Virus record (IMG/VR): IMGVR_UViG_2609459795_000010
Coordinates: 1 to 10,679 of that record
Source: a virus
Lineage: Duplodnaviria; Heunggongvirae; Uroviricota; Caudoviricetes
Reading direction: 5' to 3' (one strand)
Length of the DNA: 10,679 nt
The position numbers and the translations under genes were made by a program. The notes beneath the pieces are model-generated. The model was not told the DNA's origin, ran no database searches, and worked only from the letters and a program-made list of their open reading frames with translations. Below are positions 1 through 10,679 of this stretch, in pieces; position 1 is the stretch's first letter; the number at the start of each line of letters is the position of its first letter.

Positions 1-276
1 TTACCGACTGCGGCCTGAGTTTTTTAAGTGACGTAAAATCGTGTTGAGGCCAACGCCCATAATGCGGGCGGTTGCCCGGCATCCAACGCCATTCATGGCC
101 ATATCAATGATTTTCTGGTGCGTACCGGGTTGAGAAGCGGTGTAAGTGAACTGCAGTTGCCATGTTTTACGGCAGTGAGAGCAGAGATAGCGCTGATGTC
201 CGGCGGTGCTTTTGCCGTTACGCACCACCCCGTCAGTAGCTGAACAGGAGGGACAGCTGATAGAAACAGAAGCCAC
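1..276 (-). CDS. insA: IS1 InsA transposition regulator, 91 aa, GTG start
   Basis: Translation [43 protein letters not shown]...LKNSGRSR is recognisable as canonical IS1 InsA (CxxC...CxxC zinc finger). Stop codon sits at 1-3. Confidence 0.92.
19..25 (-). promoter_or_regulatory. IS1 AAAAAAC programmed -1 frameshift motif (InsAB' fusion site)
   Basis: Minus strand reads AAAAAAC just before the insA stop. This is the established IS1 slippery site; insB lies outside the window. Confidence 0.6.
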
Positions 277-304
277 TGGAGCACCTCAAAAACACCATCA
301 TACA

Positions 305-751
305 CTAAATCAGTAAGTTGGCAGCATTACCCAAAGATATACCTATAACAAAATGAGCGATAATTAACTCATAGTCATCTATTCTATATTGTTTAAGCTT
401 CAACATGCAGGTATCAATCATACGACCTTCATCGTTGCCACACTGACGGCGTAATTTCTTACCATGAGGTACTACATCTTTATATTTATCAGCTACTTGC
501 TGCCAGTTGATAGAACTATTTCCAGCTGCAGCCCAAGCCCCCCAACTGTCCAAAATATCATATATATTAGCATTGCTATCCACCTTTTTTTTATATTCTT
601 TTTTGAGGCGACCAAGAAGCATCCTGGCCATCATCATTATTTCTATACTTTTAACTGATTCATAAGCATCAGGAGAAATAATTCTCCCATCACTTAATGC
701 CCTATCACTAAGATTTGCTATTTCCAATAATCGTTCTTTAGTTATTTCCAT
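305..751 (-). CDS. AT-rich hypothetical accessory protein, 3' end interrupted by IS1 (last 8 codons GNAANLLI and the stop are read from the IS1 inverted repeat)
   Basis: ATG at 751..749 preceded by GGAG (761..758) with 6-nt spacing. The open frame runs into the IS1 end at 331. Markedly AT-rich (by eye about 35% GC) compared with neighbours. No family recognised. Confidence 0.6.
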   Translation of the reverse strand: MEITKERLLEIANLSDRALSDGRIISPDAYESVKSIEIMMMARMLLGRLKKEYKKKVDSNANIYDILDSWGAWAAAGNSSINWQQVADKYKDVVPHGKKLRRQCGNDEGRMIDTCMLKLKQYRIDDYELIIAHFVIGISLGNAANLLI

Positions 752-909
752 TATTATCTCCACCGCCCTTTCGGGCGGCCTCCTGATGTTCTGAGGGTGC
801 GGAAATCCCTCCGGTTAAGGATTAAATTTTTAACAGTGCTGAATTTAATTATTCAGATTTGGATTATGCTTTCTCTTTCACTTCACCAAGTTCCGATTGT
901 TAATTTGGC

Positions 910-1326
910 TCACAACAGCACCTCCTGTAAGTTTCCCCGATAAAACGCCAGTACGCGCTGCATAACTTCGCTCTTCCGGCACTCGCTACAGATTATGTTC
1001 TGACGCCTGTCGTAGTGGCGTATCTCTCCATCTGGTAATGAATAAATCAGGCCAGGGTCGCTCTTCTTTTTCGCTGCACCTTTAGACATCTCTTTATGGG
1101 CTTTTATCCAATCTTTACGTACCTGCTCAGAAGGGAATATTCCATGCCCTGAACCATATACAACACCACTGTCTACCAGTTCTTTCGCCAGAACTTCAAT
1201 CAGATGTCTCGTCGCCCCTGTTTCATTTTCCAGTTGTTTACGCGTTTTCCTACCATATCTGCGTACCAGTTCCACAATACGCGCCTTTACTTCTTCCCGT
1301 TGTTCGGGAGTAAAAACTTTTACCAT
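910..1326 (-). CDS. Hypothetical phage protein downstream of the helicase loader (ren/YdaW position), 138 aa
   Basis: ATG at 1326..1324 with strong AGGAGG Shine-Dalgarno just upstream, 14 bp after the stop of the preceding gene. No family recognised. Confidence 0.75.
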   Translation of the reverse strand: MVKVFTPEQREEVKARIVELVRRYGRKTRKQLENETGATRHLIEVLAKELVDSGVVYGSGHGIFPSEQVRKDWIKAHKEMSKGAAKKKSDPGLIYSLPDGEIRHYDRRQNIICSECRKSEVMQRVLAFYRGNLQEVLL

Positions 1327-1340
1327 AAGTCCTCCTGAAA

Positions 1341-2087
1341 TTACTTCACAACCCTCAGGTGTCTGACATTCGAACGCCAGCTCTCCCAGTTAAAATTCAC
1401 CCAGCGACCACCGTTCATGACCATGCGATCCATCACACGCTCGCCAAGAAGCGTACTCATCGCTACGTGGTTCAGGTTCGTCAGCATTCCGACACTACGC
1501 ATCGAAGCCGTTCTGCGGTCGACTATCTGGTTCAGCGTGACCTGCTCGTTGCGCATATCCCGCTGCATTCCGATTTCATCCAGGACAAGCAGGTCAACAT
1601 CACACAACCCCTGTAAAAATTTTTCGCCTGAGTTTTTGTTGTCGTAGCTGTTGTGTAACGCCAGCATCACATCAGCCACCGTTATCACAATCACGCTGCG
1701 ACCTTTCGCCAGAAGATGATTGCCAATGGCGGCTGCAAGGTGGTTCTTTCCGGTACCCGGCTTACCGCTGAACACAAAATTCGTGCACCCTGTCATCAGT
1801 TCGTCAGCGATGGATTTTGCCTGGCTCAGCGCGTGTTTTTGCCCGTCGTTCTGCACCTGATAATTCGCAAACGAGCATTTGCTGTGCAGAGGCTGGATGC
1901 CCGAACGATTCAGGATTTTTTCCACCCGCAACTGGCGATTCTGGCGGTTGATCTCCTCGCTACGTTTTCGCCCTTCTGCCAGTTGCCACTCGCGCCACTC
2001 GTCCACTGTCCGGTACGGCGCGATTACATGCTGCGGAGTCAGCTTACGGATACGCTCAAGAACACCACCTGCCGCGATATTTTTCAT
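1341..2087 (-). CDS. ydaV: DnaC-like AAA+ replicative helicase loader, 248 aa (Rac YdaV-like, lambda P functional analogue)
   Basis: Walker A FSGKPGTGKNHLAAAIG and Walker B DLLVLDEIG seen in the translation. Length matches my recollection of K-12 YdaV (248 aa). Sits immediately downstream of the initiator gene. Confidence 0.88.
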   Translation of the reverse strand: MKNIAAGGVLERIRKLTPQHVIAPYRTVDEWREWQLAEGRKRSEEINRQNRQLRVEKILNRSGIQPLHSKCSFANYQVQNDGQKHALSQAKSIADELMTGCTNFVFSGKPGTGKNHLAAAIGNHLLAKGRSVIVITVADVMLALHNSYDNKNSGEKFLQGLCDVDLLVLDEIGMQRDMRNEQVTLNQIVDRRTASMRSVGMLTNLNHVAMSTLLGERVMDRMVMNGGRWVNFNWESWRSNVRHLRVVK

Positions 2088-2093
2088 GGCCCG

Positions 2094-3059
2094 TTACCCC
2101 CTGAACCCCGGCGGAATTTCGGTATCCGGCTCAGAAATATGATTCACACAACGCTGTACAGACGAACGCCCCAGGCGGATAACCAGTTCATCCCATTTTT
2201 CGCGAAGCTTTGACGGACTCATGATATTTTTTACCCAGAATGGATCCCGCTGCACCCGACCAAACATTTCACAAATTTGTCTGTGAGTTCTGCCATCCAG
2301 CATCCGCATTGTGCGCACGTCGTTGGCCCATGCGGTCCAGTTGGGTTCTTTCGGTCGCGAAATCTCGCCATCATCGCTGGCGGCCTGCTCGTAAAGACTC
2401 ACGATTCGCCCCCAGATCCACTGCGCACACGCCAAATCTTCCTGGTTGCCCCACTGGCGTTTTTTTGCACTGAACACAACCGCGTCAGGGTGTCGGGTTA
2501 AAAAATCCTGTTCAACCGTCTGCGGGTCCGGTTGCGAAGCTTCCGGACGAGAAGTGTTTTTATTCTCTGTAGTAATCTCTGTTGTATTCTCTGTAAGATC
2601 ATCAGGCCATTTTGACCCGATGACATTGAGTCGTTTTGAACCAATGGAACGTGCCATTTTGGCCTCTTCCATCGTGTCATTCTGATCTGATGGAGCAGCG
2701 CATTTTGACCTGATGGATTCGCTCACTTTGCCACCATCTAAAAGCTCGCTCTCGTAATTAATCGTGTAAAAATTAGTCATATCACGCTTTGATTTATTGA
2801 GCTTTTCGCAACGCAAAAGCCCCAGCGTTTTCAGACTTGCAAATGCGCGTTTTAACGTTGACTCTGACCAGAACGGGAACTGCTCCAGCCATTGTTCTGT
2901 TGTGTTATAAATCCAGCGAACACCATCACATTCCATGCCGGAACTGGTATCTCTCAACCAGTAATGCAACTGCTGCAACACGATGGCTTCGTTCAGACCA
3001 ATTTTCATCGCCAGCTGCGTGTTTATAACCAGCGGACGTTCAGCAAAAAGGAGCTTCAT
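2094..3059 (-). CDS. Phage replication initiator, O-like (YdaU-like), about 321 aa; ORF track extends to a TTG at 3083
   Basis: ATG at 3059..3057 lies 21 bp after the upstream stop and follows a G-rich SD. N-terminal winged-helix-like region, low-complexity linker (TENTTEITTENKNTS), conserved C-terminal region. Position between the regulator and the helicase loader. Confidence 0.8.
   Translation of the reverse strand: MKLLFAERPLVINTQLAMKIGLNEAIVLQQLHYWLRDTSSGMECDGVRWIYNTTEQWLEQFPFWSESTLKRAFASLKTLGLLRCEKLNKSKRDMTNFYTINYESELLDGGKVSESIRSKCAAPSDQNDTMEEAKMARSIGSKRLNVIGSKWPDDLTENTTEITTENKNTSRPEASQPDPQTVEQDFLTRHPDAVVFSAKKRQWGNQEDLACAQWIWGRIVSLYEQAASDDGEISRPKEPNWTAWANDVRTMRMLDGRTHRQICEMFGRVQRDPFWVKNIMSPSKLREKWDELVIRLGRSSVQRCVNHISEPDTEIPPGFRG
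2561..2716. repeat. Iteron-like direct repeats inside the initiator gene: three tandem 12-bp units (2561-2596) plus CATTTTGACCYGATGR copies at 2608-2623, 2678-2693 and 2701-2716, with a partial copy at 2655-2664; putative prophage ori
   Basis: Repeats read directly from the sequence. By analogy with lambda ori lying inside gene O in the inter-domain linker. Confidence 0.45.
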
Positions 3060-3079
3060 CCTCCCCCCAGAACACGTTA

Positions 3080-3505
3080 TCAATGCGCCACCACGGCATT
3101 TCCCGCCGGACCACCACGATTCATCTGATCGAACAACACGATCGCTGCCGCAACAAACTCATCGATATCTTTCACCAGGCGCTCCCGTCGCTCGACAAGC
3201 TCCCGGTGATATTCCGAACTGTGGCTGCGCATTCGGGCCACCAGCGGAGGCGGCATTGCTTTTTCGATCGCCGGTAACAACGCCTGAATTTTTTTAACCG
3301 CATCAGGGGTGTCTTTTTCTACCCAGCGGAAAATTTTCTGGGTATTACGAGACAGGGCTTCCGGATGGCTGTCGTCGTACAATTCAGGAAACGTCATACC
3401 CAACTCAAAATAAGACTGGGTTATTTCAGCTGCCGGAACTTTTTCACCGTCCGAATGAGCCCAGGCATTCATCGCCATGCGGATGTGTTCATGCTTGATT
3501 TTCAT
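3080..3505 (-). CDS. ydaT: YdaT-family regulator (CII functional analogue), 141 aa
   Basis: ATG at 3505..3503 overlaps the upstream stop as ATGA (translational coupling); GGAG lies 8 nt upstream. Size and position after the Cro-like gene match Rac YdaT as I recall it. Confidence 0.78.
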   Translation of the reverse strand: MKIKHEHIRMAMNAWAHSDGEKVPAAEITQSYFELGMTFPELYDDSHPEALSRNTQKIFRWVEKDTPDAVKKIQALLPAIEKAMPPPLVARMRSHSSEYHRELVERRERLVKDIDEFVAAAIVLFDQMNRGGPAGNAVVAH

Positions 3506-3804
3506 GAATCAACTCCATCAGATAAGCATGCACTACAATCACCTTCAGCATGAACAACATGTGTTTGCCCCAAACGAATGCCGCTCGCATACTCAGGCCA
3601 AATAAGCTCCCAATCATGGGGTCGTAGCTCCGCCCTACTTACTTGGCCTTCCGTCGCAGATTCGATCATAAGGGCGCGGGTTGGAGATATAGCTGTTCGT
3701 CCAGACGCCATTTGCGATAAGTAAGATGGCGATACACCAAGTCTGGCCGCGAATTTCTTAGCATCACCAACCCTTAATGATTTAATAAACTCTTTTAATG
3801 TCAT
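3502..3804 (-). CDS. ydaS: Cro-like HTH regulator, YdaS family, 100 aa
   Basis: HTH segment AARLGVSPSYLSQMASGRTAISPTRALMIE. AGGAAGG Shine-Dalgarno before ATG at 3804..3802. Divergent from the repressor gene. Confidence 0.82.
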   Translation of the reverse strand: MTLKEFIKSLRVGDAKKFAARLGVSPSYLSQMASGRTAISPTRALMIESATEGQVSRAELRPHDWELIWPEYASGIRLGQTHVVHAEGDCSACLSDGVDS

Positions 3805-4274
3805 ACCTTCCTCGGTTTAGTGTTTTTTTTGCGAGTTTAGTGTTTAATAAACCATTAAGTCAAGTATTTGCTTGTTTAGTGATTACTAAAGATAATTACC
3901 ACATGCAAAAAAAAGAAATTCGCCGTTTACGTCTCAAGGAGTGGTTTAAAGATAAAACTCTGCCACCCAAAGAGAAGAGCTACCTATCTCAATTAATGAG
4001 TGGGAGAGCCTCGTTTGGAGAAAAGGCTGCCAGAAGAATAGAGCAAACATACGGGATGCCGGAAGGGTATCTGGATGCGGAATACGCAGAACAACCGGGG
4101 GTTTCTCCACCACATACAGGGTTAACGTCTAATCAACTGGAATTATTGCAGATTTTTTCAGCCTTCCCTGAGGATGAGCAACGCCAGATAATCAGCGAGT
4201 TAAAGCAGAAAAAAGAATCAATGGAAGATCTCATAGCGAGATGGATTGCGGCGCAAAAATGCCGCCGCGCCTGA
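3798..4274 (+). CDS. racR: Prophage repressor, RacR-like HTH_XRE protein (158 aa from ATG 3798; ATG at 3903 giving 123 aa is the more plausible start)
   Basis: HTH motif SYLSQLMSGRASFGEKAARRIEQTYG. Divergent from the Cro-like gene across an operator-repeat region. The 158-aa length matches my recollection of K-12 RacR. The first 35 codons overlap the operator region and the ydaS start. Confidence 0.82.
   Translation: MSYLPRFSVFFASLVFNKPLSQVFACLVITKDNYHMQKKEIRRLRLKEWFKDKTLPPKEKSYLSQLMSGRASFGEKAARRIEQTYGMPEGYLDAEYAEQPGVSPPHTGLTSNQLELLQIFSAFPEDEQRQIISELKQKKESMEDLIARWIAAQKCRRA
3805..3902. promoter_or_regulatory. Divergent operator/promoter region (OR analogue): three GTTTAGTG repeats plus candidate divergent promoters
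   Basis: GTTTAGTG at 3815-3822, 3835-3842 and 3874-3881. Minus-strand TTGACT (3863..3858) with TAAACT (3839..3834) at 18-nt spacing, reading toward ydaS. Plus-strand GATAAT (3891-3896) 6 nt before the ATG at 3903, suggesting a leaderless repressor mRNA. Confidence 0.5.
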
Positions 4275-4294
4275 GTTATAAAACCGGAGGAAAC

Positions 4295-4486
4295 ATGAAT
4301 AGAGCCCTTTCACCAATGGTTTCTGAATTTGAAACCATTGAACAAGAAAACAGTTACAACGAATGGCTGCGTGCGAAAGTAGCAACGAGCCTTGCAGATC
4401 CGCGCCCAGCAATTCCCCATGACGAAGTTGAGCGCAGAATGGCAGAACGCTTTGCTAAGATGCGCAAGGAACGGAGCAAGCAGTAA
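4295..4486 (+). CDS. Putative type II antitoxin (ParD/RelB-like), 63 aa
   Basis: GGAGG Shine-Dalgarno 4 nt upstream of the ATG. Stop TAA is 1 nt before the ParE-like start. Small acidic protein with a basic C-terminus. Assignment rests mainly on its position upstream of the toxin. Confidence 0.6.
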   Translation: MNRALSPMVSEFETIEQENSYNEWLRAKVATSLADPRPAIPHDEVERRMAERFAKMRKERSKQ

Positions 4487-4487
4487 A

Positions 4488-4766
4488 ATGTTACCCGTGT
4501 TATGGCTTGAAAGCGCAGATACCGACCTAGATGATATAACTAGTTATATTGCTCGTTTCGACATAGATGCGGCTGAACGCTTATGGCAGCGATTAAGGGG
4601 TTGTGTGCTGCCGTTATCCGAACATCCGTATTTATACCCACCAAGCGACAGAGTACCTGGCTTGCGTGAGATTGTAGCCCACCCTAACTATATAATTCTA
4701 TACCGCGTAACAACATCAAGCGTTGAAGTAGTAAACGTGATCCACGCAAGACGCCAGTTTCCCTAA
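4488..4766 (+). CDS. ParE/RelE-superfamily toxin, 92 aa
   Basis: C-terminal signature PGLREIVAHPNYIILYRVTTSSVEVVNVIHARRQFP fits the ParE consensus (GLRE...Y.I.YRV....V.I.RV.H.R). Start is tightly coupled to the upstream small ORF. Confidence 0.78.
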   Translation: MLPVLWLESADTDLDDITSYIARFDIDAAERLWQRLRGCVLPLSEHPYLYPPSDRVPGLREIVAHPNYIILYRVTTSSVEVVNVIHARRQFP

Positions 4767-4789
4767 CTTTCACTACCAATAGAAACATA

Positions 4790-4826
4790 ACAACCGCAAC
4801 GACTTTATCAAAAGCGTTGTGTTTGT
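4790..4826 (+). terminator. Imperfect hairpin after the toxin gene; weak terminator candidate
   Basis: ACAACCGCAACG (4790-4801) pairs with CGTTGTGTTTGT (4815-4826) with one mismatch and one G-U. The T-rich tract downstream is not immediately adjacent. Confidence 0.25.
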
Positions 4827-4835
4827 TATGTTTCG

Positions 4836-4880
4836 CGGTTTAGTTTTTACTTGACTTAAGTTTAATGTTTATTAAACTAA
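4836..4880 (+). promoter_or_regulatory. OL/pL-like promoter-operator: TTGACT (4851-4856), 16-nt spacer, TAAACT (4873-4878), flanked by two degenerate GTTTAGTGTTT copies
   Basis: GTTTAGTtTTT at 4838-4848 and GTTTAaTGTTT at 4860-4870. The core TTGACTTAA...TTTATTAAAC is nearly identical to the minus-strand promoter core in the 3805-3902 region. Confidence 0.45.
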
Positions 4881-5063
4881 AATACCAACCCACCCCGCCC
4901 CACAGAACGCAGGGAAATACTTCGAGTTACCCGGCAGTGGTCAGGGGTTAAGTAGCCAGCCCGAGGCGTAAGAACATGACGGCAGGGTTCAACTTTAACT
5001 ATGCAGCAGGTTTTTGTTCCGCTACCCCGGCGTTAAGGGGAAACAGCACCGCGAGGAATCAGT

Positions 5064-5282
5064 ATGCAGAAACGAGAACCCGTCATCATCGCGCCAGACT
5101 ATACCGATGATGAACTTTATGAGTGGATGCGCCAGAAAATTAATGCAGCGCAGGATCTGAAATGGGCCAATGAAGCCAAGGCTAAGCAGGCTGAAAATCT
5201 GTCCGCTCTGGAGCAGGATATCACCAGGCTGGAAAAAGCAGCGGCATTAAGCATTGCCAGAATGATTACATGCCCGCGTTAA
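5064..5282 (+). CDS. Hypothetical small protein, 72 aa, predicted helical; first ORF after the OL-like promoter
   Basis: GAGGA Shine-Dalgarno 6 nt upstream of the ATG; double stop TAA TAG. No family recognised; not arginine-rich, so not N-like. Confidence 0.65.
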   Translation: MQKREPVIIAPDYTDDELYEWMRQKINAAQDLKWANEAKAKQAENLSALEQDITRLEKAAALSIARMITCPR

Positions 5283-5304
5283 TAGCTAACCAACGAGGCT
5301 AATA

Positions 5305-5634
5305 ATGGAATTTAAAGATTTACCAATGCAATTCCAGGAAATGGCAGCGAATATAGTTCGTTCCCAACTGGCGACTCTTGACCTGAGTACCGTAGAAAAA
5401 GAAACCATCGATACTATATCCGGTAACGTGCGTCGTGCCTTTATCGGTCTGTACGAAGAGAAGCAGCTCTCTGATAACCTGGATTTACATGAAAAATACT
5501 TCCTGGATCTAATGGACATCATTGATAAGGGGTTTGGCTTGTTAATGAAAAAGAAAGGGATTCGAATAGAACCCCTTGAAAATTACCTTGCAACAAAAAG
5601 CATTAATTCTTTTGATTCAAAACAAGAGAATTAA
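5305..5634 (+). CDS. Hypothetical protein, 109 aa
   Basis: GAGG Shine-Dalgarno 6 nt upstream of the ATG, 22 bp after the previous stop. AT-rich. No family recognised. Confidence 0.65.
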   Translation: MEFKDLPMQFQEMAANIVRSQLATLDLSTVEKETIDTISGNVRRAFIGLYEEKQLSDNLDLHEKYFLDLMDIIDKGFGLLMKKKGIRIEPLENYLATKSINSFDSKQEN

Positions 5635-5877
5635 TTACAGATTTAACATGCTCTTTCTCATGATTGAAGCTCTCATGATTGAAAGTGCCTGGTTGAAGCG
5701 AGTCGATATAATCAACAAGACTCTGTCGTACGACTTCATTTTTATCCATTACAGATGCAAGAAATGAAATTGCTAAAAGAGTTATATCACTACGCGCCGC
5801 AGCATGCTGCAATGCTTTATCAAAATTATTAATCTGGCGTATCAGGGAGTTAATGATTTCATCATTTTCAGTCGACA
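5603..5877 (-). CDS. Hypothetical protein, 91 aa, convergent with and overlapping the 3' end of the 109-aa ORF by 32 bp
   Basis: ATG at 5877..5875 with strong GGAGGG Shine-Dalgarno upstream on the minus strand. Very AT-rich. The ORF track extends it to 202 aa, but that N-terminal extension is GC-rich, Arg-rich and looks non-coding. Confidence 0.6.
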
Positions 5878-6432
5878 TTTCACCCTCCTGAGGGTTGGTG
5901 ATTAAGGAGTTCTCCACGGGTGAGGTGGAGTGCGTGCGCCGGACACGGGTGAGCATCCGGCACTGACAGTTTACTGAAAGGATATTTCCCTGAAAAGTCA
6001 GACCATAACGCGAAAGCGCACGGCGAGGTAGCTGGTTCATAGATAGCCTGTCGTTAAATTTTCGTCGACCGTGCGCTTCCGGTTGTGGCACTCCGCGAAA
6101 TGGCGCGGCGGTAAGTATGGCGGGGGTATTCCTTCCCCGTTGAGGACACCGGGTTGTCAGGTTGACCATACGCTTAAGTGACAACCCCGCTGCAACGCCC
6201 TCTGTTATCAATTTTCTGGTGACGTTTGGCGGTATCAGTTTTACTCCGTGACTGGTCTGCCGCCCTTTTTAAAGTGAGTTTTGTGATGCGGTGAATGCGG
6301 CTGAGCGCACGCGGAACAGTTAAAACCAAAAACAGTGTTATGGGTGGGTTCTCTGTATCCGGCGTTAATTGTTAACTGGTTAACGTCACCTGGAGGCACC
6401 AGGCACCGCATCAACAAAGTTCATTTGTAAAA
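5878..6432. other. 555-bp GC-rich, hairpin-dense non-coding tract between divergent genes; candidate structured RNA, long leader or gene remnant
   Basis: No convincing ORF on either strand. Hairpins read directly include GGTTGTCA...TGACAACC (8-bp stem), CCGCG-AAATGG-CGCGG and CCGGA...TCCGG. Composition contrasts with the AT-rich flanks. Confidence 0.3.
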
Positions 6433-6444
6433 ATGGAGATAATT

Positions 6445-6666
6445 ATGATTGCTCATCACTTCGGAACTGATGAGATTCCTCGTCAGTGCGTGACTCCCGG
6501 TGATTATGTTATTCATAAAGGAAGAACATATATTGCTTCGGTAAACAACATTAAAAAACAACGGCTCTATATTCGTGATTTTTCCACACAACACTGTATT
6601 AAGGAAACCATGATTAAAGTCTTCCTTGGTCGTGATGGTTTACCTGTAAAAGCAGAGTCATGGTGA
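6445..6666 (+). CDS. Small prophage protein, 73 aa (77 aa if started at ATG 6433); possibly YdaC-like, unverified
   Basis: GGAG Shine-Dalgarno 6 nt before the ATG at 6445. Location two genes upstream of xis/int resembles the Rac ydaC position. The family name is recollection only. Confidence 0.65.
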
Positions 6667-6789
6667 GCAGTAATAAAATAACTGCCACAATACGACATTC
6701 AGCTTAATGAATACATCAGATTTGATTCTTATATGCCAGCAATGGCAGGGATTTGTTCATCCTTAAATCTGTCATGAGGTTAAAACAAA

Positions 6790-7710
6790 ATGAGTAAAGT
6801 CTTTATTTGCGCCGCCATTCCGGACGAACAGGCAATAAAGGAAGAAGGTGCAGTTGCTGTAGCCACTGCCATTGAAGCCGGTGACGAACGCCGCGCCCGT
6901 GCCAAATTTACCTGGCAATTCCTGGAGCAATATCCGGCTGCTCAGGACTGCGCTTATAAATTTCTTGTCTGCGAGGATAAACCCGGTATACCCCGCCCTG
7001 CCCTCGATTCCTGGGATGCTGAATATATGCGGGAAAACCGCTGGGATGAGGAGTCAGCTTCCTTTGTCCCGGTTGAGACTGAATCAAATCCGATGAACGT
7101 CACTTTTGACAAGCTGGCCCCTGAAGTACAGAACGCTGTCATGGTTAAGTTCGACACATGTGAAAACATCACCGTTGATATGGTGATTAGTGCACAGGAA
7201 CTGTTGCAGGAAGACATGGCAACATTCGACGGACATATCGTTGAAGCGTTGATGAAAATGCCAGAAGTTAACGCCATGTATCCGGAACTTAAGTTGCATG
7301 CCATCGGGTGGGTTAAGCATAAATGTAAGCCTGGAGCTAAATGGCCCGAAATTCAGGCAGAGATGCGCATCTGGAAAAAACGTCGCGAAGGTGAACGCAA
7401 GGGAACCGGAAAATACACGTCTGTTGTTGATCTCGCCCGCGCCAGAGCCAATCAACAGAACACTGAAAGTTCAACAGGAAAAATCAGCCCGGTCATTGCT
7501 GCCACTCATCGCGAATACAAGCAGACATGGAAAACACTGGATGACGAACTGGCCTACGCTCTCTGGCCTGGTGATGTGGATGCCGGAAACATTGACGGCA
7601 GCATTCATCGCTGGGCAAAAAATGAAGTTATCGACAACGACCGCGAAGACTGGAAGCGTATCTCGGCATCAATGCGCAAACAGCCTGATGCCCTTCGCTA
7701 CGACCGCTAG
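6790..7710 (+). CDS. Hypothetical protein, 306 aa, acidic; ends at a TAG that is in frame with the next ORF
   Basis: ATG with GAGG about 10 nt upstream. Long open frame. No family recognised. Confidence 0.72.
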   Translation: MSKVFICAAIPDEQAIKEEGAVAVATAIEAGDERRARAKFTWQFLEQYPAAQDCAYKFLVCEDKPGIPRPALDSWDAEYMRENRWDEESASFVPVETESNPMNVTFDKLAPEVQNAVMVKFDTCENITVDMVISAQELLQEDMATFDGHIVEALMKMPEVNAMYPELKLHAIGWVKHKCKPGAKWPEIQAEMRIWKKRREGERKGTGKYTSVVDLARARANQQNTESSTGKISPVIAATHREYKQTWKTLDDELAYALWPGDVDAGNIDGSIHRWAKNEVIDNDREDWKRISASMRKQPDALRYDR

Positions 7711-7761
7711 ACTATTTTTGGCCTTGTCCGTGAACGTCCGATCGACATTCACAAAGACCCT

Positions 7762-9261
7762 GTGGCACTGAACAAATACATTACTGAATACCTGACTACA
7801 AAGGGCGTGTTTGAAGATGAAGGAACAAATCAGAGCGCAACTGATACTCTCTCGTCGCCAGTACCAGAAACTGATGCAGTGGAAACGGCAATTCCGGACA
7901 ACGAAAAAACCGAATGCAAAGTGGAAGTCGAACCATCTGTAGAGCGTGAGGGGCCGTTCTACTTCCTCTTCACCGACAAGGATGGCGAAAAATACGGTCG
8001 CGCAAACAAACTTTCTGGTCTGGATAAGGCGCTGGCTGCCGGGGCTACTGAAATCACGAAAGAAGAATATTTCGCCCGCAAAAACAGTACATACTCAGGT
8101 TCACAACAAAATACTGGTGCATCTGACACGACCGCACAGCCAGAACCGGTAAAAGTTACCGCTGACGAAGTAAACAAAATTATGCAGGCAGCCAATATCA
8201 GCCAGCCTGACGCCGATAAGTTGCTTGCTGCATCACGTGGTGAATTTATTGAAGGGATTAGCGACCCGAATGATCCGAAATGGGTTAAGGGGATCCAGAC
8301 CCGCGATACTGTGAACCAGAACCAGCAAGAAACGGAACAGAACGACCAGAAAGCGGAACAAAACAGCCCAAATACGCAACAAAACGAGCCAGAAACGAAA
8401 CAACCTGAACCAGTAGTGCAACAGGAACCGGAAAAAATCTGCACCGCCTGCGGTCAGAGCGGTGGTGGCAACTGCCCTGATTGTGGTGCGGTGATGGGCG
8501 ACGCAACATACCAGGAAACATTCGATGACAAGAACCAGGTTGAAGTTCAGGAAGACGATTCGGAGAAAATGGAAGGCGCTGAACACCCACACAAGGAGAA
8601 TGCTGGCAGCGCTCAGGATCACGCCAGCGATAGTGAAACTGGCGAGACGGCAGATCCCTTAATTACGGTGAACGGTCATCGCGTTATCACATCCACCAGC
8701 AGGACGTGTGACCATCTAATGATCGACCTTGAAACCATGGGAAAAAATCCTGATGCCCCGATTATCTCAATAGGTGCAATATTTTTCGATCCGCAAACCG
8801 GAGATATGGGACCGGAATTTAGTAAGACTATCGATCTGGAAACTGCTGGCGGAGTCATTGATCGTGACACCATTAAATGGTGGCTTAAGCAATCACGCGA
8901 GGCGCAATCTGCCATTATGACCGATGAAATCCCGTTAGATGATGCACTGTTACAATTGCGGGAATTTATCGACGAAAACTCCGGTGAATTTTTTGTTCAG
9001 GTCTGGGGAAATGGAGCCAACTTCGACAACACGATTTTGCGCCGTTCATACGAGCGGCAGGGGATCCCCTACCCGTGGCGTTACTACAACGATCGCGATG
9101 TACGCACAATCGTTGAGCTGGGGAAAGCCATAGACTTCGATGCCAGAACTGCTATCCCATTCGAAGGTGAGCGCCATAATGCACTTGATGACGCTCGTTA
9201 CCAGGCAAAATACGTTTCAGCTATCTGGCAAAAACTGATCCCGAGTCAGGCTGATTTTTAA
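7762..9261 (+). CDS. Multidomain protein, 499 aa: acidic low-complexity N-terminal region, CxxC-x8-CxxC zinc ribbon, C-terminal DEDDh 3'-5' exonuclease domain (Rv2179c/RNase T-like)
   Basis: Exo motifs seen in the translation: IDLETMG (Exo I), [12 protein letters not shown] (Exo II), [10 protein letters not shown] (Exo III). Zinc ribbon [16 protein letters not shown]. Start is GTG with no clear SD. An internal start at the ATG near 8719 would give a domain-only exonuclease. Confidence 0.75.
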
Positions 9262-9272
9262 TGTTCAACCGT

Positions 9273-9304
9273 CGCCAGTTGTCGTTGGTATTCTGCAACT
9301 GGCG
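9273..9304 (+). promoter_or_regulatory. Perfect 9-bp inverted repeat CGCCAGTTG / CAACTGGCG with a 14-nt loop, between the exonuclease gene and xis
   Basis: Read directly from the sequence. Followed by TGTT and then the xis SD (GGAG at 9311-9314). Could be a terminator, attenuator or processing site. Confidence 0.35.
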
Positions 9305-9322
9305 TGTTCCGGAGTGATAGCC

Positions 9323-9592
9323 ATGAGCGAACAGTACCTGATAACGCTTGACGAGTGGAAACCAAAACGGTTCAGTCTCCCAATAACAAACACTACCCTG
9401 GTGAAATACGGAAAACTAGGATACATCGTTCCAAGACCACAAAAAATTCGTGGGCGTTGGCTGATAGATCGCCGGGCAGTATTTGTTGGACCTGGTGAAA
9501 CGGGAATTGCGCCGGAAATTCATACTGGCGATGATGATGCACTGAAGGAGATTTTAACTCATGTCACCGAGGCCACGAAAAAACAGCACTGA
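9323..9592 (+). CDS. xis: Excisionase (lambda Xis-like), 89 aa
   Basis: N-terminus MSEQYLITLDEW resembles lambda Xis MYLTLQEW. GGAG Shine-Dalgarno 8 nt upstream. The 3' end overlaps the int start by 32 bp, as in lambda. Confidence 0.75.
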   Translation: MSEQYLITLDEWKPKRFSLPITNTTLVKYGKLGYIVPRPQKIRGRWLIDRRAVFVGPGETGIAPEIHTGDDDALKEILTHVTEATKKQH

Positions 9593-10679
9593 CGTAACCG
9601 GTCTTTACGAAAAGTTTGATCGCAGAACTGGCAGGGTTTACTACCAGTATAAAAACCCTGTGACTGGAAAATTTCACGGTCTCGGAACAGACAAAGGCAA
9701 AGCAGAAAAAATCGCTTCCACAGCCAATCAGCGAATAGCTGCAGCAGAAGCTGAATATTTCATGCGCAAAATTGATGAAAGTCCGTCAGCAACAAAACGT
9801 CGGGGCATCAGATTAAAGGCATGGGTTGATCGATATCTGAAAATACAGGACGCGCGACTGAAAAATGGAGATATTGCAGCTACAACTCACAAAGAAAAAA
9901 CTCGAATGGCTGCATACCTGGTTTCCCGTCTGGGAAACCACCCATTGAAAGAACTGGAAGTAAGAGACTTTGCATTAATACTGGATGAGTGGCTGGATAA
10001 AGACATGGTCAGCACAGCGAGAGTAAATCGTGGATTATGGGTTGATATTTATAAAGAAGCACAGCATGCAGGGGAAGTTCCTCCTGGATGGAATCCTCCG
10101 GAGGCTACCCGTAAACCGATCCCTAAAGTAACCAGAGCCAGGCTCACCATGGAAGACTGGCAAAAAATTTACAATGCAACGCCTGAAAAACACTTTATCC
10201 GTAACGCAATGCTTCTTGCGATTGTTACTGGTCAGCGCCGTGATGACATTTGCCACATGCGTTTTTCAGATGTGTGGAACGAACACTTGCATATCACCCA
10301 GGGAAAAACCGGAATGCGTCTGGCGTTACCGCTTACACTACGCTGTGATGCCATTGGGATAACGTTAAAAGAAGTTATTGATGGGTGCCGAGACAGAATA
10401 TTAAGTCCATATCTAATCCATAGTCGGCACCAGAAACAACCGAAGCCGATGAGTAAAGACAACCTGAGCGACTACTTTGCCAAAGCACGGGATCTGGCTG
10501 GGATAATTCCACCAGCAGGAAAAACTCCGCCAACATTTCATGAACAACGCTCTCTATCAGAACGGTTGTACCGTGCACAGGGTATCGATACAAAAACATT
10601 ACTAGGACATAAAGTCCAGGCAACCACCGATCGCTATAACGATACTCGAGGTCAGGAATGGGTTAAGTTGGTTATTTGA
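9561..10679 (+). CDS. int: Lambda-family tyrosine integrase, 372 aa, complete (TGA at window end)
   Basis: AAGGAG Shine-Dalgarno. Catalytic signatures TGQRRDDI (Arg), HEQRSLSERL (His-x-x-Arg), LLGHK and TDRYND (Tyr). C-terminus GQEWVKLVI parallels lambda Int GREWDKIEIK. Confidence 0.92.
   Translation: MSPRPRKNSTDVTGLYEKFDRRTGRVYYQYKNPVTGKFHGLGTDKGKAEKIASTANQRIAAAEAEYFMRKIDESPSATKRRGIRLKAWVDRYLKIQDARLKNGDIAATTHKEKTRMAAYLVSRLGNHPLKELEVRDFALILDEWLDKDMVSTARVNRGLWVDIYKEAQHAGEVPPGWNPPEATRKPIPKVTRARLTMEDWQKIYNATPEKHFIRNAMLLAIVTGQRRDDICHMRFSDVWNEHLHITQGKTGMRLALPLTLRCDAIGITLKEVIDGCRDRILSPYLIHSRHQKQPKPMSKDNLSDYFAKARDLAGIIPPAGKTPPTFHEQRSLSERLYRAQGIDTKTLLGHKVQATTDRYNDTRGQEWVKLVI

Follow-up and report, generated by a model that had tools for sequence, protein, structure and literature searches.

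A toxin-antitoxin pair in the rexAB slot of a lambdoid prophage very probably belongs to the known three-component system paaR2-paaA2-parE2

What do two short genes do that lie between the repressor gene of a lambdoid prophage and its leftward operator, where lambda carries rexA and rexB? The question is raised by a stretch of viral DNA from the Caudoviricetes (IMG/VR record IMGVR_UViG_2609459795_000010, positions 1 to 10,679; this whole stretch of 10,679 nucleotides is called the window below), for which an earlier note, made from the letters alone, had proposed a ParD/ParE-like toxin-antitoxin (TA) pair that is transcribed together with the repressor and acts in abortive infection or as an addiction module. 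[quoted passage not shown] The pair is already known: it is a rediscovery of a well-studied published system (Hallez 2010; Sterckx 2012-2016; Jurenas 2021, mBio; PMC8630535) and not a new one.

The antitoxin gene paaA2 (4295-4486, plus strand, 63 aa) starts with the ATG at 4295, is preceded by GGAGG at 4286-4290 and ends with the TAA at 4484-4486. The toxin gene parE2 (4488-4766, plus strand, 92 aa) follows with an ATG at 4488, 1 base past the paaA2 stop, and its frame closes at 4766. Upstream, 20 nt separate the stop codon of the repressor gene (TGA, 4272-4274) from the ATG of paaA2, and the order regulator, antitoxin, toxin is thus co-oriented throughout (3903-4274, 4295-4486 and 4488-4766; the two gaps measure 20 nt and 1 nt); the reading frames and spacings given earlier were reproduced to the base. 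ParE2 is 100% identical along its entire length (residues 1-92, 92/92; E 7e-60) to PDB 5cw7_B, deposited as ‘Plasmid stabilization protein ParE’, and a sequence identical to it has been crystallised (5cw7, 5cze, 5czf), which places it in the ParE fold; at the sequence level it also matches, distantly, the Caulobacter ParE1 protein (3kxe; E 3.6e-5). In Pfam, it is recognised by ParE_toxin (PF05016) with 60.9 bits (gathering threshold 23 bits; E 1.9e-16) over profile positions 1-89 of 89, and the proposal that the 92-aa frame encodes a ParE-like protein is therefore borne out by both Pfam and PDB 5cw7_B. The antitoxin, over residues 2-63 (62/62 aligned), is 100% identical to PDB 3zbe_A (‘PAAA2’, E. 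coli O157:H7; E 5.5e-37) and likewise, over the same residues, to the antitoxin in 5cw7 and 5cze. Its residues 16-45 match PF21217 with 70.7 bits (gathering threshold 27 bits; E 1e-19), and this PaaA2 family is its sole Pfam match at E<=0.1, with no ParD, RHH or Phd profile among the hits. Hence, of the two profile matches that the earlier note had expected, the one to ParE was found for 4488-4766, whereas the ParD/RHH/Phd assignment of the 63-aa protein has to be given up. Judged by these identities, 4295-4486 and 4488-4766 are real open reading frames for a PaaA2 antitoxin and a ParE2 toxin, and chance is ruled out. Members of the PaaA2 family, to which the antitoxin is assigned, are short, largely disordered and without a DNA-binding domain; PaaA2 itself has been reported to lack any DNA-binding motif (PMC8630535).

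The gene in front of the pair is paaR2 (3903-4274, plus strand), which encodes a CI-like repressor of 123 aa from a leaderless mRNA. Read from the ATG at 3903, PaaR2 is identical over residues 1-66 to PDB 7nkv_A (‘Phage repressor protein CI’); the N-terminus MQKKE has been found experimentally by sequencing of the protein, and the ATG is also where 5' RACE located the start of transcription (PMC8630535). Compared to the gene of O157:H7 TT12B there are 3 substitutions, one of them synonymous and the others G67V and A72T, such that the linker between the two domains carries V67 and T72 here and G and A in TT12B. A longer frame of 158 aa that starts at ATG 3798 was rejected as the repressor gene, as 3805-3902 is an operator/promoter region and as the 3798 start contradicts both the experimental MQKKE N-terminus and the leaderless ATG at 3903; its length in the program-made list of reading frames is, by coincidence, the annotated length of K-12 RacR. 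The name racR, under which the upstream repressor had first been described, was also rejected: BLASTP against K-12 RacR returned E 0.051 with 15/57 identities in one short segment, that is, no significant similarity, and the protein is PaaR2 instead. The annotation of the window is thereby fixed in two places, with the repressor as PaaR2 from a leaderless start at 3903 and the antitoxin as a member of the PaaA2 family.

Between paaR2 and the divergent gene ydaS lies an OR-like region (3805-3902) with the divergent promoters PR and PRM, recognised by promoter scan, by its repeats and from the literature. The scan placed PR on the minus strand, with TTGACT at 3863-3858 and TAAACT at 3839-3834. 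PRM, as we infer it, would consist of TTGCTT (3868-3873) and GATAAT (3891-3896) at a distance of 17 nt, with the +1 position at A3903. Half-sites of the GTTTAGT type are found at 3815, 3835 and 3874 (repeat families D1 and D2) in this intergenic region, which differs from that of O157:H7 TT12B by a single base within a run of T and is otherwise the same; PaaR2 and YdaS are known to footprint on the 97-bp intergenic region, at repeats of consensus GTTTAGTAA (PMC8630535). The gene ydaS (3502-3804, minus strand) encodes a Cro-like repressor with Pfam matches to YdaS_toxin and HTH_3 and weak ones to Cro, its protein accession WP_000172738.1 is common to the annotations of O157:H7 TT12B and strain 10035776-3, and its function has been described as Cro-like (PMC8630535). 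The next gene, ydaT (3080-3505, minus strand), is assigned from Pfam, PDB and the literature to a CII-like activator of PRE, the alternative promoter of the paaR2 operon: its product matches YdaT_toxin (PF06254) and the crystal structure of the CP-933P YdaT (PDB 8bt1_A; E 6.5e-82), and a CII-like activation of the PRE analogue by YdaT has been reported (PMC8630535, PMC9986795). The YdaT operator OM (3495-3512), TTGATTTTCATGAATCAA, spans the stop codon of ydaS and the start codon of ydaT; it is an exact fit to the published TTGATTN6AATCAA and the single match in the window, compared to 0.09 expected by chance; the literature places this box at the ydaS/ydaT junction (PMC9986795). In the annotation, YdaS and YdaT are to be entered as regulators and not as a toxin pair.

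On the other side of the pair, an inverted repeat (I1, 4782-4834, plus strand) with arms of 25 nt lies between the parE2 stop and the OL/PL analogue and is followed on its 3' side by a U-rich stretch, GCGGUUUAGUUUUUAC. The predicted hairpin has a folding energy of -29.6 kcal/mol (z -7.2), with 0/200 shuffled sequences as stable, and is kept in O157:H7 with two changes at the base of the stem. Its folding, which is the basis of the assignment, suggests that it is probably the terminator that ends the paaR2-paaA2-parE2 operon before PL, akin to tImm of lambda; PMC8630535 makes no use of the word ‘terminator’. The OL/PL analogue itself (4838-4881, plus strand), found by promoter scan and by its repeats, reads into ydfC. 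Its half-sites are GTTTAGTTTTT at 4838 and GTTTAATGTTT at 4860, and its promoter, TTGACT-16-TAAACT at 4851-4878, has the same hexamers as PR (3863-3834, minus strand). A second operator/promoter past the pair, as had been noticed before, is hence present, and the earlier reading that no terminator parts the repressor gene from the pair agrees with a consensus scan in which the plus strand of 3903-4766 contained no terminator-like site. The same type of scan found no promoter-like site in the 20-nt gap between paaR2 and paaA2. A promoter-like site inside parE2 (4507-4535) was taken as a chance occurrence because the scan returned 5 sites compared to 2.9 expected.

How closely does this arrangement follow the published one? 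The immunity region (3780-5040) has ~99% DNA identity to that of prophage CP-933P/Sp12, including the operators between ydaS and paaR2, the PL/OL copy and the YdaT box, and its alignment with O157:H7 TT12B and strain 10035776-3 revealed few substitutions. The paaA2-parE2 segment is base-identical in the window and in both of these strains, and O157:H7 Sakai, too, carries the TA pair at 100% identity, inside an annotated ‘prophage Sp12, lambda-like phage’. The setting of a lambdoid immunity region is present as well, with ydaS-ydaT, repeats of the GTTTAGT type at OR and OL, and PL. [quoted passage not shown] ClpAP and ClpXP break down PaaA2, and ParE2 is found at the nucleoid and triggers the SOS response (PMC8630535). 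The ydaST-RAE2 region equals ccdAB in its ability to stabilise an unstable mini-F plasmid, which it does through post-segregational killing (PMC8630535). In the steady state, activity of ParE2 was undetected in either transcriptional state, and the authors only propose that the pair stabilises the immunity region (PMC8630535). Co-transcription with the repressor, a place in the rexAB slot and a role in addiction, all put forward in the earlier note, are accordingly in print, as they have been published for this system: the first for the PRM933P operon of the identical locus and the last through mini-F stabilisation and post-segregational killing (PMC8630535). Nothing that the note had listed as refuting its reading was observed.

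The mechanism that we propose for the window has been demonstrated in E. coli O157:H7, where the proteins are identical and the DNA nearly so, and we infer the same circuit here because conservation extends to the promoters, the operators and the three coding sequences. PaaR2, in the repressed (‘lysogenic’) state, would be made from the leaderless PRM mRNA and would repress PR (ydaS-ydaT) and PL, while the transcript would run on into paaA2-parE2 and, as suggested by the fold of 4782-4834, would be stopped by that hairpin ahead of PL. The Cro-like YdaS together with the CII-like YdaT, acting via PRE, would complete a bistable switch. PaaA2 is expected to wrap around ParE2 and neutralise it; should the DNA be lost, PaaA2 would decay through ClpAP and ClpXP and ParE2 would be freed, associate with the nucleoid and induce the SOS response with DNA damage, so that loss of the locus would kill or arrest the cell and render the immunity region addictive.

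The surrounding prophage is not CP-933P itself, and any one complete E. coli genome covers at most 76% of the window. The window starts within an IS1 element (insA at 1-276, minus strand; the terminal repeat GGTAATGCTGCCAACTTACTGAT ends near 332) that splits the gene for the antiterminator Q; of the 118 positions of the Q profile, the frame at 305-763 matches 3-83 only. Since IS1 interrupts Q, the prophage is probably defective. At ~5040-5063, between PL and ydfC, ~305 bp are absent compared to the closest relative, strain 10035776-3, which has ydfA (DUF1391) and a small hypothetical gene there, and O157:H7 carries the zinc-binding gene ECs_2282 on the opposite strand at this spot instead; as a consequence of the missing ~305 bp, PL reads almost directly into ydfC (5064-5282). 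Farther downstream, a full-length DicF small RNA (6214-6265, plus strand) was identified by Rfam (RF00039, 74.2 bits; gathering score 48). Pfam recognises nothing in the next frame (6433-6666, 77 aa), and we take it not to be DicB, the gene that follows dicF in Qin and in prophages like CP-933P. Where CP-933P has its 823-aa ‘exonuclease’, the window encodes a protein of 499 aa (7762-9261, plus strand); its N-terminal half is long, acidic and rich in Q, E and P, and its C-terminal part bears an Rv2179c-like 3'-5' exoribonuclease domain (PF16473; E 1e-67).

Mosaic prophages often carry this immunity cassette, which is mobile among them; it is found in ~11-12% of complete E. coli genomes. In a set of 5,426 such genomes, the TA pair was matched in 633 (in 594 of these at >=95% identity, that is, at least 95%), paaR2 in 593 and the whole 3400-5100 region in 591; as the last three counts are nearly equal, repressor and pair are almost always together. 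Among deposited phage genomes, one, Escherichia phage Evi, has the module at 98.7% identity. In IMG/VR, a PaaR2 homologue was present on the same strand and upstream of the pair in 80/80 loci retrieved with ParE2, with identities from ~40% to >90% for PaaR and of 60-100% for the TA pair. Some of these loci couple a TA pair that is ~90% identical to a PaaR variant only 40-70% identical to PaaR2, and in ~11 loci the repressor aligns in part only and the gap amounts to ~460 nt. These identities suggest that several immunity specificities may share one TA cassette. Outside the enterobacteria the picture differs. The species-representative genomes contained no identical ParE2 (the best reached 74%), and in 76/80 of those from Proteobacteria with a ParE2 homologue (47-74% identity) a PaaA2-like frame lies directly upstream, the neighbours are unrelated, and PaaR2, YdaS and YdaT are all absent to a distance of 3 kb. 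Such stand-alone pairs occur in Komagataeibacter, Acidithiobacillus, the Pseudomonas syringae group, Bartonella and others. No conserved third gene or PaaR-like regulator was seen upstream of the non-enteric pairs, a result weakened by spurious frames in GC-rich DNA; the upstream frames were of mixed kinds, and ten candidates searched against Pfam matched families with no relation to one another (HU, RadC, a YafQ fragment) or none. The stand-alone pairs fit the published suggestion of a two-gene cassette that was captured by a prophage immunity region.

This distribution bears on the alternative that survives best, namely that the pair is a selfish hitch-hiker, a mobile two-gene cassette that settled behind the repressor gene and is kept since its loss is lethal, with no benefit to prophage or host. 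Homologous pairs next to unrelated genes in Alpha-, Beta- and Gammaproteobacteria are what it would predict, and an insertion into the immunity region has been suggested by the published authors themselves (PMC8630535). However, the sequence data cannot separate it from the addiction reading, and the fact that the arrangement is always the same with several diverged PaaR variants suggests that the linkage itself is maintained. We therefore regard the hitch-hiker as possible but doubtful, and retain as the preferred reading an addictive paaR2-paaA2-parE2 module that belongs to the immunity region.

Does the position of the pair also imply a function akin to that of lambda rexAB? The position as such had been recognised in the earlier note, and the literature describes it in the same terms: the pair lies upstream of the OL/PL analogue in the rexAB slot (PMC8630535, PMC9986795) and "replaces rexA and rexB" (PMC9986795). 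In lambda, rexA-rexB fill the same interval from the repressor gene to OL/PL and, in lysogens, are read from PRM on the transcript of the repressor. Yet the two modules have no sequence relationship; Pfam gives PaaA2 and ParE_toxin only, there is no Rex family among the matches of the pair, and position is what it has in common with RexA and RexB. PaaA2 and ParE2 are soluble proteins, whereas lambda Rex consists of a sensor plus a membrane protein. That the pair, poised for action in lysogens, serves mainly in RexAB-like exclusion, with superinfection depleting the labile PaaA2 (for example by shut-off of host transcription) and the freed ParE2 aborting the infection, strikes us as unlikely, even if position and co-transcription with the repressor are those of lambda rexAB, degradation of the antitoxin by Clp proteases is a property used by other abortive-infection TA systems, and phage Evi has the pair as well. 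A PADLOC scan of PaaR2, PaaA2 and ParE2 matched no defence model and hence lends no support to a catalogued defence system; the words ‘abortive’ and ‘exclusion’ are absent from PMC8630535; no test of phage defence was found in the searchable literature; and the addiction phenotype, already demonstrated, suffices for the retention of the pair. Improbable, too, in our analysis, is a double role in which PaaA2-ParE2 would be addictive and would in addition act in RexAB-style abortive infection or exclusion upon depletion of Clp-labile PaaA2, as the positive support for abortive infection goes no further than the gene position.

Least tenable, and in our judgement virtually dismissed, is a conventional self-regulated ParD-ParE operon beside the repressor gene, with an RHH antitoxin that binds its own promoter: the toxin is genuinely of the ParE family and the related pairs of the 76/80 non-enterobacterial genomes do stand alone, but the antitoxin, at 63 aa, has PF21217 for its one family, paaR2 is just 20 nt away across a gap devoid of a promoter-like site, control has been published as exerted by PaaR2, YdaS and YdaT and not by the TA complex (PMC8630535), and the reading has already been refuted for the identical O157:H7 proteins.

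With the classical ParD-ParE pairs (RK2; Caulobacter ParDE1, 3kxe; Vibrio cholerae ParDE2), the locus shares the toxin family PF05016, an upstream and translationally coupled antitoxin gene, and post-segregational killing. It departs from them in that PaaA2 has no RHH DNA-binding domain and a separate phage repressor controls transcription, and in that ParE2 of O157, according to a review, neither bound GyrA59 nor, as reported, inhibited gyrase. A separate regulator gene that precedes an antitoxin unable to bind DNA is found in omega-epsilon-zeta of Streptococcus pyogenes pSM19035, although the protein families are unrelated and omega acts as a simple repressor, unlike PaaR2 with its role in a bistable switch of the CI/Cro/CII type. 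The Rac prophage of K-12 has in common with the window a repressor gene divergent from ydaS-ydaT and, thereafter, O- and P-like replication genes, but YdaS and YdaT of CP-933P share only 26% and 31% identity with their Rac counterparts (PMC8630535), and in Rac a non-coding stretch of ~308 bp, and no gene, separates racR from the leftward early genes ydaG and ydaF; the earlier statement that K-12 Rac differs at this position was thus accurate. With ydfC and DicF RNA, the backbone of the window resembles Qin/CP-933P more than Rac. Closest of all is the cryptic prophage CP-933P (EDL933) / Sp12 (Sakai) of E. coli O157:H7, which shares with the window the PaaA2 and ParE2 proteins and their DNA, the gene order, the spacings of 20 nt and 1 nt, the OR/OL operators, PR, PRM, PL, the YdaT box and ydaS/ydaT. 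Beyond the immunity cassette the backbones differ: the window has IS1 in Q, a different integrase arm, the 499-aa Rv2179c-like protein in place of the 823-aa exonuclease, and, after PL, neither ydfA/ydfB nor the ECs_2282 gene.
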